Shown here in pieces: positions 1,024 through 6,801 of a DNA stretch of 6,801 nt. The notes below the pieces were generated by a model. It was not told the origin of the DNA and ran no database searches. It worked only from the letters and a program-made list of their open reading frames with translations. The DNA is taken from the IMG/VR virus record IMGVR_UViG_2547132272_000022; one strand, given 5' to 3'. The position numbers were made by a program, and so were the translations under genes. Position 1 is the first letter of the stretch, and each line of letters opens with the position of its first letter. This stretch comes from a virus (taxonomy: Duplodnaviria; Heunggongvirae; Uroviricota; Caudoviricetes).

Positions 1024-1217
1024 CTATCAAATAACCAATTGATTATTAATGAAATAACCATCATTTTTCATGCTTAAAAAAACAATATTGATACACCGAT
1101 TGATACACAAACAGAGAACGGCACAAAAAAAATGACAGAAAACAAGAGAACAACAAATTGAGTCGGGATTGTACCCGATCCCATAAAAGCTCACTAACGC
1201 TTTTAATGTATCTTTGT

Positions 1218-1285: not shown

Positions 1286-1534
1286 ATGCGCACACAGGTT
1301 GTATTGCAAAAATGGGGTAACAGCATTGCCCTTCGACTAACGGGAAACCTTAAAACCGTTCCGGGTTTTTCAGTGGGTGATATCGTCAACGTTGAAATTA
1401 GTGAAAAGGGGCTTTTTGTAGAAAAGCCTGCACGCCGTCGCCTGAGTGAAGCCGAATTACTCGCCGGGATAACGCCAGTTACAGCGCACGCGGACGAAAT
1501 TGCCACCCCATTCAATGAGGAGGTTGATTACTGA
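1286..1534 (+). CDS. MazE/PemI/ChpS-family antitoxin (AbrB/SpoVT-type fold)
   Basis: 82-aa ORF with RBS caggag 8 nt upstream of the ATG. The N-terminal KWGNS...R signature and overall pattern resemble MazE and ChpS. Its TGA stop overlaps the start of the next gene (TGATG at 1532..1536). Confidence 0.85.
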   Translation: MRTQVVLQKWGNSIALRLTGNLKTVPGFSVGDIVNVEISEKGLFVEKPARRRLSEAELLAGITPVTAHADEIATPFNEEVDY

Positions 1535-1878
1535 TGTTTGTACCTAAGCGTGGTGATATTTGCTGGCTGGATTTTGAGCCGCAGAAAGGAAAAGAGATCG
1601 GAAAGTATCGCCCGGCACTCATACTATCCCATGAGCAATATAACCGACTCACCGGGCTTGTCATATGCTGCCCCATAAGTACGAGCATACGAAATGCTCC
1701 CACAGAAGTTCCGGTAACAAATCTGGACGCCCCCAGCGTGGTAGCAACCACACTCATTCAAACCCTTGACTGGCGTCAGCGGAAAGCGCGCTTAATCACA
1801 GAGGCAGAAGATGGGGTATTTAATGATGTGCTTGAAAGAGTCATTACCCTGATTGGTGGAGAGCATCTGCTTAAGTAA
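1534..1878 (+). CDS. MazF/PemK/ChpB-family toxin (putative sequence-specific endoribonuclease)
   Basis: 114-aa ORF with RBS gaggagg 9 nt upstream. The translation aligns by eye with E. coli MazF (P.RGDI.W.DF.P.KG.E....RPALILS...YN..TG...CP.ST), and start/stop coupling with the upstream antitoxin is typical of type II TA operons. Confidence 0.88.
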   Translation: MFVPKRGDICWLDFEPQKGKEIGKYRPALILSHEQYNRLTGLVICCPISTSIRNAPTEVPVTNLDAPSVVATTLIQTLDWRQRKARLITEAEDGVFNDVLERVITLIGGEHLLK

Positions 1879-1921: not shown

Positions 1922-3193
1922 CTATTCTTTCCAGTCAATCCCATCCAGTAAGCACCCTGCCTCATATTGCCCCACCACCCAGTCAAGGTTACAGGACTCA
2001 TAGAACGCGAGGCGATTATACTGAGGCTCGTTTTTTACCAGGCCACGAACGGAACCACGCTGCCAGTACAGACACAGATTGGCAAGAGGTGTGATCAATA
2101 CAGCATTGTCCGGGAAAAATGGAACGGTTACAGCCGGGAGATTCCCCAGAACGGGATTTTTAATGATTTCCTCGTTAAGCAAAATTTCCTGATTCATCTG
2201 CGATGGATCAAGACGGTTTATCAAAGGCCATTGTTTACGGACCAGCGTATTGTGACTGCATACGGCCACAATGCCTTCCTGCCACTGTTCATCAATCATG
2301 GATTGCCAGGCATCCAGAACGAGCGCATCTATCGTATGGTGTGTACCGCGTGTATTACTTTTCGGTGATGAAACAGAAAGGCCGCTGATAACCCTTCCCG
2401 CCGCTTCATTTCGAAACTTCTGCAACCAGCCCACGCCGCAATCGTCACGCCCCGGATATGTTTTAGGGTCAGATTCGGCGGCATAATGTGTGCCGTTAAA
2501 ACCAATCTGAATTAAATCCAGCCATTTCCGGCGTTCAAAAGCGGCCCGCGCACTTCCTTCAAGGCCGTTTGCGGATGCGTGAGCATCGGCATTGTCGTAG
2601 CTCAACGCAAAATCAAAATTAACCTGCTCGCAGCGGTAGCCCCTTGAAACCAGTGAATGCGCCTGTAGTGGCGAACGGCGCTCGTGAGGTGGCGATGTAC
2701 GTGCCAACGGCCCCGAAGCGTCTACCAGCACAACCCGACCTGATATATCCGTAACAGGCACGGGCGTTATTTCAGCAAGGAAATTTGCCTGCCATCCACT
2801 GGCAAGCGTTGCACTCTGGCGGGGAACGGGTTCAACTTCTGACGAATAGCGCGCAGTGTCACCGGAAAAGTGCAAATCCTTCGGATGTTTTCCGGTTATC
2901 GACTCGATAGCGCAATTGAAAACCATCTGAGCCTGTTGATTTCGTTGTGATACAACAGAATCAGCAGTGCAATTATAACGCTCAATGCCGTCGTTATTAC
3001 CCCCACCGCTTGCAGTATGCAGGGTGTGAAGCTCAAGCTCACGCTCCAGTTTTTGATATTCATTGTCCAGCGCGCGACGCGTCTCATCGCTTATGCTTGC
3101 TGTGTTTGCTTTCAGGCGATTCCGGGACATTAATCCCCTGAGTCGGCTCACTATATCAGCGCCGTGCAAATGTGGAGTATTCAGACCGCCCAT
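1922..3193 (-). CDS. Hypothetical protein B (423 aa), distal gene of the two-gene operon; function unknown
   Basis: Long uninterrupted minus-strand ORF. The ATG at 3191..3193 overlaps the TAA stop of gene A by one base (TAATG), a classic translational-coupling arrangement. I recognise no Walker, nuclease, HEPN, reverse-transcriptase or nucleotidyltransferase motif by eye. An in-frame ATG further upstream (3334) would add 47 aa but overlaps gene A by 142 nt. Confidence 0.7.
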   Translation of the reverse strand: MGGLNTPHLHGADIVSRLRGLMSRNRLKANTASISDETRRALDNEYQKLERELELHTLHTASGGGNNDGIERYNCTADSVVSQRNQQAQMVFNCAIESITGKHPKDLHFSGDTARYSSEVEPVPRQSATLASGWQANFLAEITPVPVTDISGRVVLVDASGPLARTSPPHERRSPLQAHSLVSRGYRCEQVNFDFALSYDNADAHASANGLEGSARAAFERRKWLDLIQIGFNGTHYAAESDPKTYPGRDDCGVGWLQKFRNEAAGRVISGLSVSSPKSNTRGTHHTIDALVLDAWQSMIDEQWQEGIVAVCSHNTLVRKQWPLINRLDPSQMNQEILLNEEIIKNPVLGNLPAVTVPFFPDNAVLITPLANLCLYWQRGSVRGLVKNEPQYNRLAFYESCNLDWVVGQYEAGCLLDGIDWKE

Positions 3194-3903
3194 TACTGCC
3201 ACCCCCGGCAGAGTTCTCTGCCCTCCGCAAGGTCGCGCATTTTTTCTGGATTCTGTCGCGCCGCGCTCCATTGTACAGGTGAAGGGGCGTTCCTGATTGC
3301 GCGGCTTACCGAATCCGGGAGTTTCTCCGGGCAATAACGCAGCGGGCTGGAGGTGTCGCTTTCGGTATCGTTAATCCGGCCGCGAATCATCCCGACACTT
3401 TCAGCAGTATCTGTCGCTTTCAGTGTTTCGCATATTTTCTTTTCTGCGTTATACAGCGGCTGGCCAAGCAGCTCACATAAACCACGAATCAATAACAGAG
3501 CAGGGGTCAGCTCGTTAATCAGTTCGGGAAGTGCTTTTGCAAATATCTCTGCCCGCAACTTATTATCAATGCTTTCGTAAGCACAACCAGCCTCTGCCGC
3601 GTTATAACGACACTCCAGTAGCCTGATGCGCGCCTCATCATGCAGCACCCGCAGACGCTCAAGATTTTCTCGCGCCACACCCGCCTGAATGGATAATTTC
3701 GCGGAGGCTTCCGTTTTTACGCCCAGCGCAGACAGGATTGAGTTCTGCCAGTCACGATCGAGAGATTCCAGCTCCCCTTTCGTCTGTTCGATAGTTGCTT
3801 CCAGATTGGTGATTAATGATTCCTGTTCACTGAGTTTTGCCATGGCTGCATCAAACTGTGCTTTACATACCTGATGTTCGGCGCTTGCCTGAGTTATATC
3901 CAT
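3193..3903 (-). CDS. Hypothetical protein A (236 aa), predicted helical and coiled-coil-rich N-terminal half; function unknown
   Basis: Minus-strand ORF with RBS caggag 6 nt upstream of the ATG at 3901..3903. The N-terminal ~100 residues are rich in E, L, A, K and R in a heptad-like pattern. No catalytic motif recognised. Confidence 0.72.
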   Translation of the reverse strand: MDITQASAEHQVCKAQFDAAMAKLSEQESLITNLEATIEQTKGELESLDRDWQNSILSALGVKTEASAKLSIQAGVARENLERLRVLHDEARIRLLECRYNAAEAGCAYESIDNKLRAEIFAKALPELINELTPALLLIRGLCELLGQPLYNAEKKICETLKATDTAESVGMIRGRINDTESDTSSPLRYCPEKLPDSVSRAIRNAPSPVQWSAARQNPEKMRDLAEGRELCRGWQ

Positions 3904-4068
3904 TATTTGCTCCTGTAATACATTTTTTTACTTACGCCGATTTTTTCCATATTGCGTAATACATTCCAGCCGATTTTGTTCTCGTAATACGCTCACAATA
4001 CTGTTGTATTACGCTTTCTTATATCGCGGGTGTTAAATCCCGGCATAAACAATCAGGGAGGCAACACG
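3904..4068. promoter_or_regulatory. Divergent intergenic control region between gene A (-) and the small RHH-like gene (+), containing several copies of a CGTA-N-TACG palindromic motif
   Basis: GTAATAC occurs at 3915..3921, 3956..3962 and 3984..3990, and GTATTAC at 4006..4012. The copies at 3984 and 4006 form an inverted repeat. Promoters for both divergent units must lie here; exact -35/-10 boxes are not assigned. Confidence 0.4.
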
Positions 4069-4302
4069 ATGAAAAAACAAAAGAAAATGCGATGCGTATT
4101 ACGCTGTATTCGTATCCCGCACGAAATCGACCATAAAATAAATCAGATATGTCAGGACAGAGAGATGAACTACTCCCAGTGCGTCAGAATGTTTATCAGT
4201 CAGGGAATTAAGGCCGGGGAAACGCAGGAAGAAGACTGCAACGGGCGCAATGTAGCGGGGGATGTGTGGGCCTGGGCAAATGACCAGAACCACACGACGT
4301 AA
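4069..4302 (+). CDS. Small putative DNA-binding protein (77 aa), possibly ribbon-helix-helix type
   Basis: ATG at 4069 is preceded by a strong RBS agggagg (4055..4061). The N-terminus MKKQKKMRCVLRCIRIP (basic, then alternating hydrophobic residues) followed by two predicted helices fits an RHH/Arc-like pattern. This is my reading of the sequence, not a computed fold. The track ORF begins at 4030 but lacks an RBS there. Confidence 0.45.
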   Translation: MKKQKKMRCVLRCIRIPHEIDHKINQICQDREMNYSQCVRMFISQGIKAGETQEEDCNGRNVAGDVWAWANDQNHTT

Positions 4303-4352
4303 TACAGAAATAACGCAGCCGGTCACACTCGCTGGCTGTGTTATACAAATCA

Positions 4353-4535
4353 CTATGAAGTTTTCGACTTCCTGCGCTTAGTAATGCGTACAAACGACTC
4401 AAGCGTACAAAAACAAGCCCCACACTCAATATTATTGCACTGGTAATACGTTCTGTAGATGTTTTGTTCGTGTTCTTCCAACGAACGACCACGGGTGCGG
4501 GCTGAAGCGCCACAGGCCGGGCAAGGGAAAGACAT
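4353..4535 (-). CDS. Ogr/Delta-family zinc-finger protein (phage P2 late-gene activator homologue), 60 aa
   Basis: Translation MSFPCPACGASARTRGR...YYQCNNIECGACFCTLESFVR matches the Cys4 architecture and spacing of P2 Ogr (CPLC...HQCQNVNCSATFITYESVQR) as recalled. RBS aagaggag lies 6 nt upstream, and a perfect TATAAT -10 hexamer lies on the minus strand at 4570..4575. Confidence 0.75.
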   Translation of the reverse strand: MSFPCPACGASARTRGRSLEEHEQNIYRTYYQCNNIECGACFCTLESFVRITKRRKSKTS

Positions 4536-4897
4536 ATCACGCTCCTCTTACTGGTGTGAAATTTAACCTATTATATCTTCTGCCGCCCCCTCTGGCTGTA
4601 TCAAATAAACCCGCAGCAGTCGCCGCGTATTACGCACGGGCGCGCCGTTCCCATGCTCACTCGTCACATTCCCCGTATCAGTTCTCTCTTGCCGTAAGAA
4701 CGGCTCTGGCTGGCGATAAAACTAACCCGGTCGGGGCATTCCCGCAGCCTTTAGCGAAAATGTAATTTACCCCCTGAAACGCGTGCTGTTCCCCCGTCAC
4801 CTGCGCGCGAAAAACTCACCGTTTTTTGTGCACGCACGAAATCGCCCTCCGGGCGCGCCAGTACTGGGCCGGATGGGCAAAAAGTTACTCTAAAAAA

Positions 4898-4924
4898 TTG
4901 TGCAAATTTGTGCACTTTTGTGCA
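4898..4924. repeat. Three direct TTGTGCA repeats at an exact 10-bp period
   Basis: TTGTGCA at 4898..4904, 4908..4914 and 4918..4924, with a fourth TTGTGCAC at 4826..4833. The 10-bp spacing puts the copies on one helical face, as expected for cooperative protein binding. Confidence 0.6.
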
Positions 4925-5151
4925 GATGAACAATAGCGTCAAAAAGAGTGCTTTTGAGAGATTTTTTATGGCAACTGCGCCGCGTGTATTACGTTTTTTA
5001 CCATCCCCGCCGCGCATGTACATACTTCATTTTTCTGCCAAACAACAGGGCAACTCCCCGTGACTGACAGCCCCCAAAAAATCAATGATTGATGTTGCAT
5101 TTTTGTTAGAGGTCAGGCCAGTTGTTTTGGGGCTCTGCCTCATAATCCGGT

Positions 5152-5184
5152 GGGGGGTGCGCAAAGCGGTTACAACGGTTACAA
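5152..5184. repeat. Left arm of a 33-bp perfect inverted repeat
   Basis: ggggggtgcgcaaagcggttacaacggttacaa (5152..5184) is the exact reverse complement of 5433..5465. Confidence 0.9.
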
Positions 5185-5432
5185 CAGTCAAAAACACCAC
5201 TTAACAACATGATTTTAATGGATATTGTTTGTAACCGCTTTGCGGTTACACTGCGGTTACAACGGTTACAGGTTTAAAAAAGCACTTTATTATCAATCAA
5301 TTAAAAACTTAACCTGTAACCGCCTGTAACCTAACAAAACGGTTACATGTAACCGCGTTGTAACCGCTTTTGTAACTCATCCGACCAGTTATAATATATT
5401 GATATATAATACAAAAATAAGTAATTCTAAAT

Positions 5433-5468
5433 TTGTAACCGTTGTAACCGCTTTGCGCACCCCCCCCC
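5433..5468. repeat. Right arm of the 33-bp perfect inverted repeat, ending in a C9 homopolymer
   Basis: ttgtaaccgttgtaaccgctttgcgcac followed by nine C (5460..5468). The left arm has only six G, so the homopolymer is 3 nt longer on this side. Confidence 0.9.
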
Positions 5469-5722
5469 AAACTTTAGCGCGACCCTTTAAAATGTTAATT
5501 AAACTCACTTGCTCTGTCTCATTCTCATTAACTCTCTATGATTAAAATGTATCTCGTCATTATTTGACTCTTTCTGATAATCAGGGGAGGGAGAGCAAAA
5601 AAATTGATGGCGACACCGCTGCAATATGGCCACCATTGCATTGCTGTTACCGTTGGTTCTGGCCAACAAAAAAGGCCAGTGGAAAACTGACCTCTTTTGC
5701 TGTGAATGTGGCGTTCTGCGGG

Positions 5723-6724
5723 TTACTCTGCTGGTTCTTTTTGTTCAGTGAATGCTATGTTAGCTATCGGGTTAAACCTCATGGCATCTGCCAGATAGTC
5801 GGGAGAAAAATGCGCATAAGTCATCGTTTGCTGAATAGTGGCATGGCCCAGAATCCGTTGCAGGGTAACGATGTTTCCCCCGTTCATCATGAAATGCGTG
5901 GCGAACGTATGACGCATCACATGAGTCGCCTGCCCTTTTGGCAAATCAGGCTTCACCTCCTGGAGGATCTCGCGAAACCGGAGATAATCGACCTCGTACA
6001 GCGGCCCAGTTCGGCAGGTTTTAATCAGCGAGAGCACAGCATCAGACACCGGAACCGAACGGGACTTCCCGTTCTTGGTGTTGAAGAACGTCACGCGATT
6101 ACCGACGATATGCTCCCCGCGTAATTCCGTCGCCTCACCCCACCGCGCCCCCGTGGAGAGACACAGAATGGCGACACGACGCGCATCACCTTCGAGTCGC
6201 TCAAGAAGCCGCTCAATCTCATCATCAGAAAGAAAGGCCATCTCTGTATTCTGAATTTTTAGCTTACGTATACTGCGCACGGGGTTCGGGTTGTGAAAGA
6301 CCCCTGCTTCAATCAACACCGTGAACATGGTAGACAGAACGCATAAGTCACGATTAATACTGGACGGCATTAATCCGGCCTGTAATTTCTCTGACCGATA
6401 CTCAAGCATAAATTTTCGCGTCATCTGGTTGGCGCGCGGATCTCCCATTTCACGAATCACTTTCTCCAGCCGGATCCTGTAGGTATCGCCGTAAGCCTGA
6501 TTACACCCGTCAAGCATCCACCATGTATCAAGCAACTCTGATAATCGCCGCCGATCAGCAGGTTTAGCTAGCCATGGGTTATTATGGAAATTCTGCAAAA
6601 CATATTGTTCGAACTTCTCTGCACTTCCTTTCCTGGTAAAAATTTTACGTATCCGTTTGCCGTATGTCCCTTGCGGCCTGATATCTAGCAACCATCTTCC
6701 ATCATCCATCTTTCTAATCGACAT
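5723..6724 (-). CDS. int: Tyrosine recombinase / phage integrase, P2 Int-like
   Basis: The translation aligns along its length with phage P2 integrase as I recall it (MSIRKMDDGRWLLDIRPQGTYGKRIR vs P2 MAIKKLDDGRYEVDIRPTGRNGKRIR; ILCLSTGARWGEA; catalytic HxxR in VMRHTFATHF and the Tyr region LQRILGHATIQQTMTYAHF). I place the start at ATG 6722..6724, which has RBS aaggagag 9 nt upstream and matches the P2 Int N-terminus. The track ORF extends 12 codons further to 6760 without an RBS. Confidence 0.93.
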   Translation of the reverse strand: MSIRKMDDGRWLLDIRPQGTYGKRIRKIFTRKGSAEKFEQYVLQNFHNNPWLAKPADRRRLSELLDTWWMLDGCNQAYGDTYRIRLEKVIREMGDPRANQMTRKFMLEYRSEKLQAGLMPSSINRDLCVLSTMFTVLIEAGVFHNPNPVRSIRKLKIQNTEMAFLSDDEIERLLERLEGDARRVAILCLSTGARWGEATELRGEHIVGNRVTFFNTKNGKSRSVPVSDAVLSLIKTCRTGPLYEVDYLRFREILQEVKPDLPKGQATHVMRHTFATHFMMNGGNIVTLQRILGHATIQQTMTYAHFSPDYLADAMRFNPIANIAFTEQKEPAE

Positions 6725-6801
6725 ACTTAAGATCTCTCCTTGTAACTGAATATCCGGCATTTCAGCACTTCCGGCTCTCTGGCCTCGGCTACTCCTTTTC
6801 C

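Follow-up and report, generated by a model that had tools for sequence, protein, structure and literature searches.

A stand-alone Ogr/Delta-like gene as the probable late activator of a P4-related satellite in Escherichia coli

Introduction

The late promoters of phage P2 are Ogr-dependent and have the consensus TGT-N12-ACA, and the cysteines of the Ogr activator are arranged as CX2CX22CX4C (PMC3931495). A gene of the same family, delta, is a component of P4-like satellites (PMC8628076), a group that we take as defined by Moura de Sousa and Rocha (PMC8628076, PMC10085698). Here we describe an ogr/delta-like gene on the minus strand of a 6,801-nucleotide stretch of DNA (IMG/VR virus record IMGVR_UViG_2547132272_000022, assigned to Caudoviricetes), referred to in its entirety as the window. 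By itself the gene is an ordinary, already annotated member of the Ogr/Delta family, whose product RefSeq names 'ogr/Delta-like zinc finger family protein' (WP_001756195.1). The satellite variant in which it is found is mildly novel, in that it combines a stand-alone delta gene, a gene for a ribbon-helix-helix (RHH)-like protein, clustered GTAWTAC boxes and a capsid gene of its own. We consider it likely that the gene product is a late activator of the Delta/Ogr type belonging to a P4-related satellite of ~13 kb, and that the helper of this satellite is a P2-family phage, most likely a P88-like one (Xuanwuvirus).

Results

The gene encodes a single-domain member of the Ogr/Delta family

The 60-aa product of the gene (MSFPCPACGASARTRGRSLEEHEQNIYRTYYQCNNIECGACFCTLESFVRITKRRKSKTS) was matched by the Pfam model PF04606 (Ogr_Delta) with an E-value of 3.3e-11 and a score of 43.4 bits, against a gathering score of 26.3. 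The match spans residues 5-51 and covers nearly the full 47 positions of the model. The protein was also matched by PHROG 603, annotated as 'transcriptional regulator'. A sequence-only reading of the window, made without database searches, had placed the gene in this family, and the hidden Markov model search bears it out. The same reading gave the product the Cys4 spacing of P2 Ogr, which is right as far as the cysteines themselves are concerned; C5, C8, C33 and C38 align with the four cysteines of P2 Ogr, P4 Delta and P88 Ogr. The loop between the two cysteine pairs, however, is X24 rather than the X22 of P2 Ogr. X24 is also found in P88 Ogr and in the homologue from a Salmonella satellite (see below). 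Six further residues (P6, R15, Q32, N35, F42 and E46) are invariant when the protein is aligned with the Ogr proteins of P2 and P88 and with P4 Delta. Among phage proteins, its nearest relatives are the Ogr homologues of P88-like phages (51% identity). Our search for a solved structure of an Ogr/Delta family protein found none.

The open reading frame (ORF) is intact in all seven E. coli variants that we aligned. Five of its codons vary synonymously only, against two conservative amino-acid changes, so that the variation appears to be of the purifying type.

The gene lies in a P4-type satellite with homology to P88-like phages

The window is 100% identical to the chromosome of E. coli E9 (NZ_CP104500.1), where it forms the left third of an element of ~13 kb located between hpt and gcd; the window also holds the chromosomal genes can and hpt, as identified by Pfam and PHROG scans. 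Beyond the window, the E9 element encodes an 889-aa Toprim primase-helicase, several small ORFs, an Icd-like gene, an AlpA-type regulator (106 aa, with matches to Phage_AlpA and PHROG 2790) and a 352-aa protein. At its far end, adjoining gcd, is a P4-type integrase (403 aa) with Arm-DNA-bind_3 and Phage_integrase domains. The primase-helicase has zinc-ribbon, Toprim and Walker-A regions, and its similarity to P4 alpha is local and weak, which indicates that it is analogous and not orthologous to alpha. Epsilon (ash) was not detected, as none of the small ORFs that separate the Icd-like gene from the primase had a PHROG or Pfam match at E <= 0.001, although one of them could be a divergent analogue.

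The window has a cos-like region (~4765..4924) that is ~83% identical to the portal-proximal region of P88-like phages. Its 19-nt core matches the P2/P4 cos sequence, taken from the P2 and P4 records, at 14 positions (Table 1). A search of the window with the P2 cos 19-mer allowing up to three mismatches gave no match; the homologue, with five mismatches, came from alignment. Judged by this similarity, the core is very probably the cos site of the satellite. Both the core and its flanks are homologous to P88 and P2/P4 cos, which provides the sequence link to a helper. An annotated 90-aa ORF, a RefSeq 'hypothetical protein' at 4751..5023, overlaps cos; its tblastn match falls in the portal-proximal region of P88, and it is probably not a real gene.

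Set against the components expected of a P4-like satellite, the element has an integrase and an AlpA-type regulator, and the 60-aa ogr-like gene stands for delta. For alpha and its origin there are the 889-aa protein, with its weak local alpha similarity, and an iteron origin (Table 1). The place of Sid and Psu is taken by a single distant gene of the Sid/Psu family, here called gene A, with no second paralogue and with delta outside its operon. For a helper-matching cos, the sequence gives 14 of 19 core positions and flanks ~83% identical to those of P88-like phages. The presence of an integrase, AlpA, an Icd-like gene, a primase-helicase, an origin and cos, together with a morphogenetic operon, suggests that the ogr-like gene is the satellite's own equivalent of delta.

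The ~13-kb element was also found at a second chromosomal site, in strain ETEC1701. Among 5426 complete E. coli genomes, 57 carry its 911-bp regulatory stretch at an identity of at least 96%. An imperfect direct repeat, ATATTGATACAC-N-(G)ATTGATACAC, was observed upstream of hpt (window 1085..1110) and adjoining the P4-type integrase (L003 8802..8828). These two copies may mark attL and attR, to judge from their sequence and position. Weighing against this left end, the copy of the element at the other chromosomal site aligns only from about window position 1201.

Related elements in Salmonella and Pectobacterium keep an Ogr/Delta gene

We identified five relatives of the element by looking up the genomic context of distant homologues of gene A. 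In Salmonella the gene order is a cos-like region, ogr, a convergent RHH-like gene, a Sid-like gene, a capsid gene and a toxin-antitoxin pair (RelB/ParE). One Salmonella element, L024, has an intact ogr gene (3373..3582) encoding an Ogr_Delta protein of 69 aa with 51% identity to its E. coli counterpart. The Pectobacterium elements have one or two Ogr_Delta genes of 81-83 aa adjoining the Sid-like gene. They have neither a capsid gene nor the second integrase that the E. coli element and its Salmonella relatives carry. Across the three genera the Ogr proteins are 22-51% identical and differ in loop length. The retention of Ogr/Delta genes in the Salmonella and Pectobacterium relatives suggests that they are a conserved component of this satellite family.

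Toxin-antitoxin genes lie at or near the capsid-module end of the elements in each genus. These are MazEF in E. coli, MazE/PemK and RelB/ParE in Salmonella (L020 12099..12654), and a helix-turn-helix protein with ParE in Pectobacterium (L022 8328..9035). The presence of different pairs in different relatives suggests a variable cargo slot.

A candidate activator site in the divergent promoter region

Gene A and the RHH-like gene diverge from a 165-bp intergenic region with a central dyad (Table 1). The E. coli dyad can be read as TGT-N15-ACA, or as TGT-N12-AGA with one mismatch. The centre of the N15 dyad is 83.5 bp from the ATG of gene A and ~82 bp from the start of the RHH-like gene. No segment of the E. 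coli alignment is better conserved than this intergenic region, where 5 of 165 positions vary; in the coding sequence alongside it, 12 of 154 do. All six elements, the one in E. coli and the five relatives, have a dyad of the form TGT-N12-ACA or TGT-N15-ACA 81-88.5 bp upstream of the Sid-like ATG. In the P2 record a single activator-binding site (3057..3087) is annotated midway between the divergent pP and pO starts, ~55 bp from each. The satellite region has the same geometry, one central site between divergent promoters.

The dyad of Salmonella L024 (TGTTCTGGCTGCTCTCTCACAACAAAAG) is a near match to TGTTCTGGCCGTTTTCTTACAACAAAAG in the terminase/scaffold (P/O) intergenic region of P88. A second late region of P88 and phage phiT5282H have in common ...CT-N-ACAACAAAA. 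The pattern GTTCT-N12-ACAA occurs once in the window, at the dyad, against 0.06 expected, and in P88 at two late intergenic regions, with the caution that it was derived partly from the same sequences in which it was counted. Of the TGT-N12-ACA site near -55 that goes with the Ogr/Delta family, the satellite offers a candidate dyad only, with its position kept in six elements and a likeness to the P88 P/O site. The dyad of Salmonella L020 (9905..9925) is 3 bp shorter (TGT-N12-ACA), whereas its sister L024, with an intact ogr, has TGT-N15-ACA. A correspondence between loop length (X24 or X22) and dyad spacing (N15 or N12) was considered and rejected, as phiT5282H has X22 with a P88-type element and PhiR44_2 has X24 without the left TGT.

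Expression signals of the ogr-like gene

The ogr-like gene has a Shine-Dalgarno sequence and, further upstream, a putative promoter with a perfect -10 hexamer (Table 1). The sequence-only reading had noted TATAAT at 4570..4575 with no good -35, and this was confirmed; the reverse complement is TATAAT, and the hexamer 17 bp upstream, CAGCCA, matches the -35 consensus at three of six positions. A TTGATA 23 nt upstream of the -10 is too distant to serve as a -35. The -10 is identical in all seven E. coli variants and its -35 region differs between strains. The Salmonella relative has TATGAT ~33 nt from the ogr start, which matches the E. coli distance, and again no -35 at a usable spacing; a hairpin and a T-run lie just upstream of this promoter.

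RNA folding identified a 14-bp hairpin between the convergent RHH-like and ogr-like genes, which is a probable terminator for both. It is predicted at -20.9 kcal/mol (z -4.2) in the plus-strand RNA and is weaker on the ogr (minus) strand, where it is followed by the U-rich tract UUAUUUCUGUAUU. A hairpin at 4612..4627, upstream of the ogr promoter, was no better than shuffled sequence. It is plausible that the ogr-like gene forms a one-gene transcription unit, because it faces a convergent plus-strand gene across this hairpin and U-rich tract. The best reading of these signals is a separate one-gene unit with a promoter that would be either activator-dependent or weak.

A probable capsid module with Sid/Psu-like and capsid genes

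Gene A lies directly upstream of gene B, to which it is translationally coupled, on the minus strand. An exhaustive HMMER search gave 20 relatives of gene A, mostly of ~240 aa and 24-40% identical to it. Five of 13 aligned members of this family matched phrog_6165, which holds P4 Sid and Psu (best E-value 8e-5). The alignment of the family compared with P4 Sid gave an hhalign E-value of 6e-5 and a probability of 64%, and the two are collinear. An AlphaFold2 model built from the 13-sequence alignment had a predicted local distance difference test (pLDDT) score of 93.6, while the model from the single sequence (pLDDT 49) was unusable. The two best fold matches of the model among 350,542 PDB chains were P4 Sid in the procapsid (7jw1_E) and P4 Psu (3rx6); each match is weak (E 0.12), as long helical proteins would give. 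Profile comparison and model together suggest that gene A is likely to be distantly related to Sid/Psu, and its product would probably set the size of the capsid or decorate it. Searches of viral contigs with the distant gene-A homologues gave no matches.

Gene B, located 1.2 kb from the ogr-like gene, matches PF05125 with an E-value of 3.5e-72. It is 35% identical to the P88 capsid protein (N) and falls under the TIGR01551 equivalog cut-off. In the alignment, its N-terminal region of ~120 aa is non-homologous. A search of genome contigs with the capsid protein found one close relative only; the remainder were ordinary P2-like prophages.

With gene A resembling Sid/Psu and gene B encoding a capsid protein, the A-B operon is best understood as a unit for capsid morphogenesis. 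The statement in the sequence-only reading that the window has no late morphogenetic genes was thus mistaken, as was its picture of an orphan regulator in an island with unrelated cargo, since the gene belongs to a ~13-kb P4-type satellite with integrase, AlpA, primase-helicase, origin and cos. Its suggestion that the A-B operon is under control of the ogr-like gene stands, in that the operon is a likely target, but the operon itself is morphogenetic and not cargo. P4 Delta had been named only as an analogy; the gene appears to be the satellite's own delta equivalent, a core part of such elements. Regulatory cross-talk with P2-family helper phages, which the reading also proposed, is a reasonable idea.

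An RHH-like gene and clustered GTAWTAC boxes

The RHH-like protein has matches to CopG, Arc, RHH_9 and NikA, which are weak and all sub-threshold. Orthologues occupy the same position in the Salmonella and Pectobacterium elements and have in common the motif R..R(I/V)PH..D.

The heptamers GTATTAC and GTAATAC occur 11 times in the window against 0.57 expected (~20-fold), and nine of these boxes fall within 3915..4992. The rest of the ~13-kb element, outside the window, has one further box only. Four boxes are in the intergenic region of gene A and the RHH-like gene (3915, 3956, 3984 and 4006), one of them inside the dyad. Others are near the start and at the stop of the RHH-like gene, inside the ogr-like gene, upstream of its -10 and beyond cos. 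The box upstream of the -10 (4625..4635) is invariant in the seven E. coli variants, in which 21 of the 125 positions of 4576..4700 vary. The GTAWTAC core also clusters round the ogr/RHH-like/Sid-like module in the relatives, with seven copies in Salmonella (L020 8859..9939) and five in Pectobacterium (L022 9167..9973), where none occurs elsewhere in 20.8 kb. The core is kept even though the proteins of the relatives are only 19-32% (RHH-like) or ~24% (Sid-like) identical. Judging from their sequence and distribution, the boxes (CGTAWTACG) are probably operators of the RHH-like protein, which is the likeliest repressor to bind them. GTAWTAC was also considered as a helper late-promoter motif. 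P88 has two copies against ~4 expected, neither at a late promoter, and this lack of enrichment indicates that GTAWTAC is not a late-promoter element of the helper.

Other features of the window

The remaining features include a candidate replication origin. The iteron array resembles the annotated iterons of P4 ori/crr and lies just downstream of the primase and second integrase genes. The element has the second integrase besides the P4-type one at its far end. The gene of this second integrase (L001 10694..11695) is 3 bp downstream of the primase gene. It has ~83% nucleotide identity to the integrase of P88-like phages. A scan of the window with Rfam gave no RNA families. PADLOC gave no significant match on the module proteins, its only match being JetC on gene A (12.5 bits, E 0.0058).

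Table 1. Positions of the features discussed, as numbered in the window.
Feature	Position	Strand	Description and basis
ogr/delta-like gene	4353..4535	minus	ATG start; 60 aa; CX2C-X24-CX4C zinc finger; basic C-terminal tail
Shine-Dalgarno sequence AGGAG	4542..4546	minus	6 nt ahead of the ogr ATG; sequence
-10 hexamer TATAAT, putative ogr promoter	4570..4575	minus	34 nt upstream of the ATG; sequence
Box GCGTATTACGC	4625..4635		~55-60 bp upstream of the ogr -10
Probable cos cohesive-end core GGTGACGGGGGAACAGCAC	4783..4801	minus	14/19 match to P2/P4 cos GGCGAGGCGGGGAAAGCAC
Hairpin between convergent RHH-like and ogr genes	4310..4344		Probable terminator for both; RNA folding
RHH-like gene	4069..4302	plus	77 aa; divergent from gene A, convergent with ogr
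Divergent promoter region of gene A and RHH-like gene	3904..4068		165 bp; dyad and four GTAWTAC boxes
Central dyad TGT-N15-ACA	3977..3997		Sid-sense strand TTGTGAGCGTATTACGAGAACAAAA (3974..3999)
Gene A	3193..3903	minus	236-aa all-helical protein; likely distant Sid/Psu-family homologue
Gene B	1922..3193	minus	P2-family major capsid protein homologue; 423 aa; RefSeq start 3193
mazE/mazF-type toxin-antitoxin pair	1286..1878	plus	Accessory cargo at the end of the element; Pfam, RefSeq
Iteron-type replication origin	~5150..5470		Many GGTTACA/TGTAACC copies round an AT-rich core; sequence
Second tyrosine recombinase, P2/P88 type	5723..6760	minus	Int_N and Phage_integrase; RefSeq start 6724

Discussion

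If it acts as P2 Ogr and P4 Delta do, the 60-aa Cys4 protein would bind a dyad centred near -55 of promoters that have no -35, and, bound there, would recruit RNA polymerase. One probable target is the divergent region 3904..4068, from which it would drive the Sid-like and capsid operon and, in the opposite direction, the RHH-like gene. The other probable target is the set of late promoters of the helper phage. The ogr-like gene would be a separate one-gene unit adjoining cos, outside the sid operon and with a -10-only promoter, and the simplest reading of the GTAWTAC boxes round the module is that they are operators for the RHH-like protein encoded beside it.

Several observations weigh against this reading. 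No resident P88-like helper was seen in E. coli E9, where the search gave one matching place only. The NCBIfam Ogr equivalog model, PRK09678, scored the protein at 29.8 bits against a cut-off of 116, so that it is to be regarded as a family member and not as an Ogr orthologue. The bare dyad pattern is low in information; TGT-N15-ACA has six copies in the window, where 1.8 would be expected, and in P88 it is no more frequent than chance predicts. Exact TGT-N12-ACA has one site in the window, which is inside can and unrelated, and none near any promoter of the window. The left half-site of the dyad is not kept in the P88-like phage PhiR44_2. Finally, the ogr gene of Salmonella L020 (9374..9582) has an in-frame stop at codon 6 (GAA->TAA, giving CP*C), which suggests that the gene is dispensable, at least for maintenance of the element.

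The GTAWTAC boxes provide a second possible binding site for the zinc-finger protein. It could bind these boxes instead of the TGT...ACA dyad, thereby regulating its own gene and controlling the module, with the RHH-like protein otherwise employed. This would fit the strong and local enrichment of the boxes, the clustering of their core at the ogr, RHH-like and Sid-like genes of Salmonella and Pectobacterium, the one invariant box amid variable flanks upstream of the ogr -10, and the overlap of a box with the dyad in both E. coli and Pectobacterium. The box is a 9-bp palindrome, however, as is typical of an RHH operator. The beta-strand motif of the RHH-like protein is kept in three genera while the Ogr proteins have diverged to 22-51% identity with differing loops, and all of the boxes are retained in Salmonella L020 despite the stop codon in its ogr gene. 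The box is also not enriched in P88 and so is not a late-promoter element of the helper. We consider binding of the boxes by the zinc-finger protein unlikely. Helper homology could instead mean that the ogr-like gene is a passenger or relic, part of a captured P88-like prophage fragment comprising integrase, cos and ogr, with no role in the life cycle of the element. The neighbouring cos region and the integrase are indeed ~83% identical to P88-like phages at the DNA level, the gene does not share an operon with the Sid-like gene, and in one Salmonella element it has become a pseudogene. But the protein is only 51% identical to P88 Ogr, which, beside neighbouring DNA at ~83%, argues that ogr was not recently captured together with it. 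Moreover, the Pectobacterium relatives keep an Ogr/Delta gene without having the second integrase, the E. coli variants have an intact gene with mostly synonymous variation, and the -10, the ribosome-binding site and the gene order cos-ogr-RHH-Sid are kept between E. coli and Salmonella. A passenger gene is therefore very improbable.

A further alternative is that the gene is an orphan regulator in an island that is not a satellite, where it couples unrelated cargo, the A-B operon, to infection by a P2-like phage, for example as the trigger of a defence. The A-B operon is probably its target, and the capsid homologue, which is divergent (35% identity) and foreign at its N-terminus, has toxin-antitoxin cargo in its vicinity, features that would allow for a role in interference with the helper or as a decoy. 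The element nevertheless has the full equipment of a satellite for replication, integration and packaging; A (Sid/Psu-like) and B (a capsid protein) are morphogenetic and not unrelated cargo, and the module proteins had no significant match in PADLOC. We therefore give this explanation very little credence, and favour a satellite-encoded late activator of the Delta/Ogr type.

Beyond this, and much more tentatively, the elements of E. coli, Salmonella and Pectobacterium may represent an undescribed branch of P4-type satellites. The late module of this branch would comprise a Delta-like activator standing alone, an RHH-like repressor acting at GTAWTAC operators and a Sid-like protein, to which the E. 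coli and Salmonella elements add a divergent P2-family capsid protein of their own. Such satellites might build or re-size capsids partly from their own coat protein, with the Delta-like gene coupling this to a P88-like helper. In the P4 model the coat protein is taken from the helper and re-sized by Sid; if the proposal is true, it would extend this model towards the capsid-forming strategy that is so far known from those phage-inducible chromosomal islands that form capsids (cf-PICIs). The 165-bp divergent promoter and the two small regulators would then also make a simple reporter system for the sensing of P2-family helpers by satellites. As it stands, about 1% of complete E. coli genomes have a satellite family in which the late activator is uncoupled from the sid operon, operator-like boxes surround the module and a P2-type capsid gene is carried.

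Comparison with known systems

Among phage-encoded activators, P2 Ogr (in a group with 186 B and PSP3 Pag) belongs to the same Pfam family as the satellite-encoded protein described here, and has a similar size and the same Cys4 arrangement. The two are 32% identical. P2 Ogr has 72 aa and an X22 loop, against 60 aa and X24 here, and its C-terminal tail is absent from the satellite protein. Its gene likewise has its own promoter, but one for which the P2 record annotates both a -35 and a -10. The binding site of P2 Ogr is TGT-N12-ACA, compared with a candidate TGT-N15-ACA or TGT-N12-AGA in the satellite.

The Ogr proteins of P88-like peduoviruses (Xuanwuvirus) are closer, with 51% identity and the same X24 loop, and these phages also have homology to the satellite in the cos region and integrase. 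The late-promoter element TGTTCT-N12-ACAA is common to P88-like phages and the satellite dyad. The position of the gene differs; in P88, ogr closes the late region, behind the tail gene D, with attP in front of it, whereas in the satellite the gene lies between cos and the Sid-like operon.

P4 Delta is the nearest counterpart in role. It too is a satellite-encoded Cys4 activator of the Ogr family, found near a sid-family gene and cos in a P4-type element, and the protein described here would likewise be expected to activate both satellite and helper late promoters. It is 35% identical to the N-terminal repeat of P4 Delta, which has 166 aa and two tandem Ogr-like repeats in place of the single X24 domain of the 60-aa protein. 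The Delta of retronphage phiR73 is single-domain. P4 delta is transcribed in the sid-delta-psu operon from Psid, whereas the gene here is a unit of its own, convergent with the RHH-like gene.

P4 has no capsid gene, whereas this element carries its own of the P2 family; in the literature searched we came across no P4-like element described as carrying a capsid gene, which is not proof of their absence. The element also differs from P4-like satellites in that epsilon (ash) was not detected, only one Sid/Psu-family gene is present, the primase appears not to be orthologous to alpha and delta is outside the sid operon, and in having a second, helper-like integrase and the RHH-like gene with its box system. 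In common with these satellites it has an integrase, AlpA, delta, a likely distant gene of the Sid/Psu family, a primase-helicase, a probable P2-type cos, a size of ~13 kb and an enterobacterial host.

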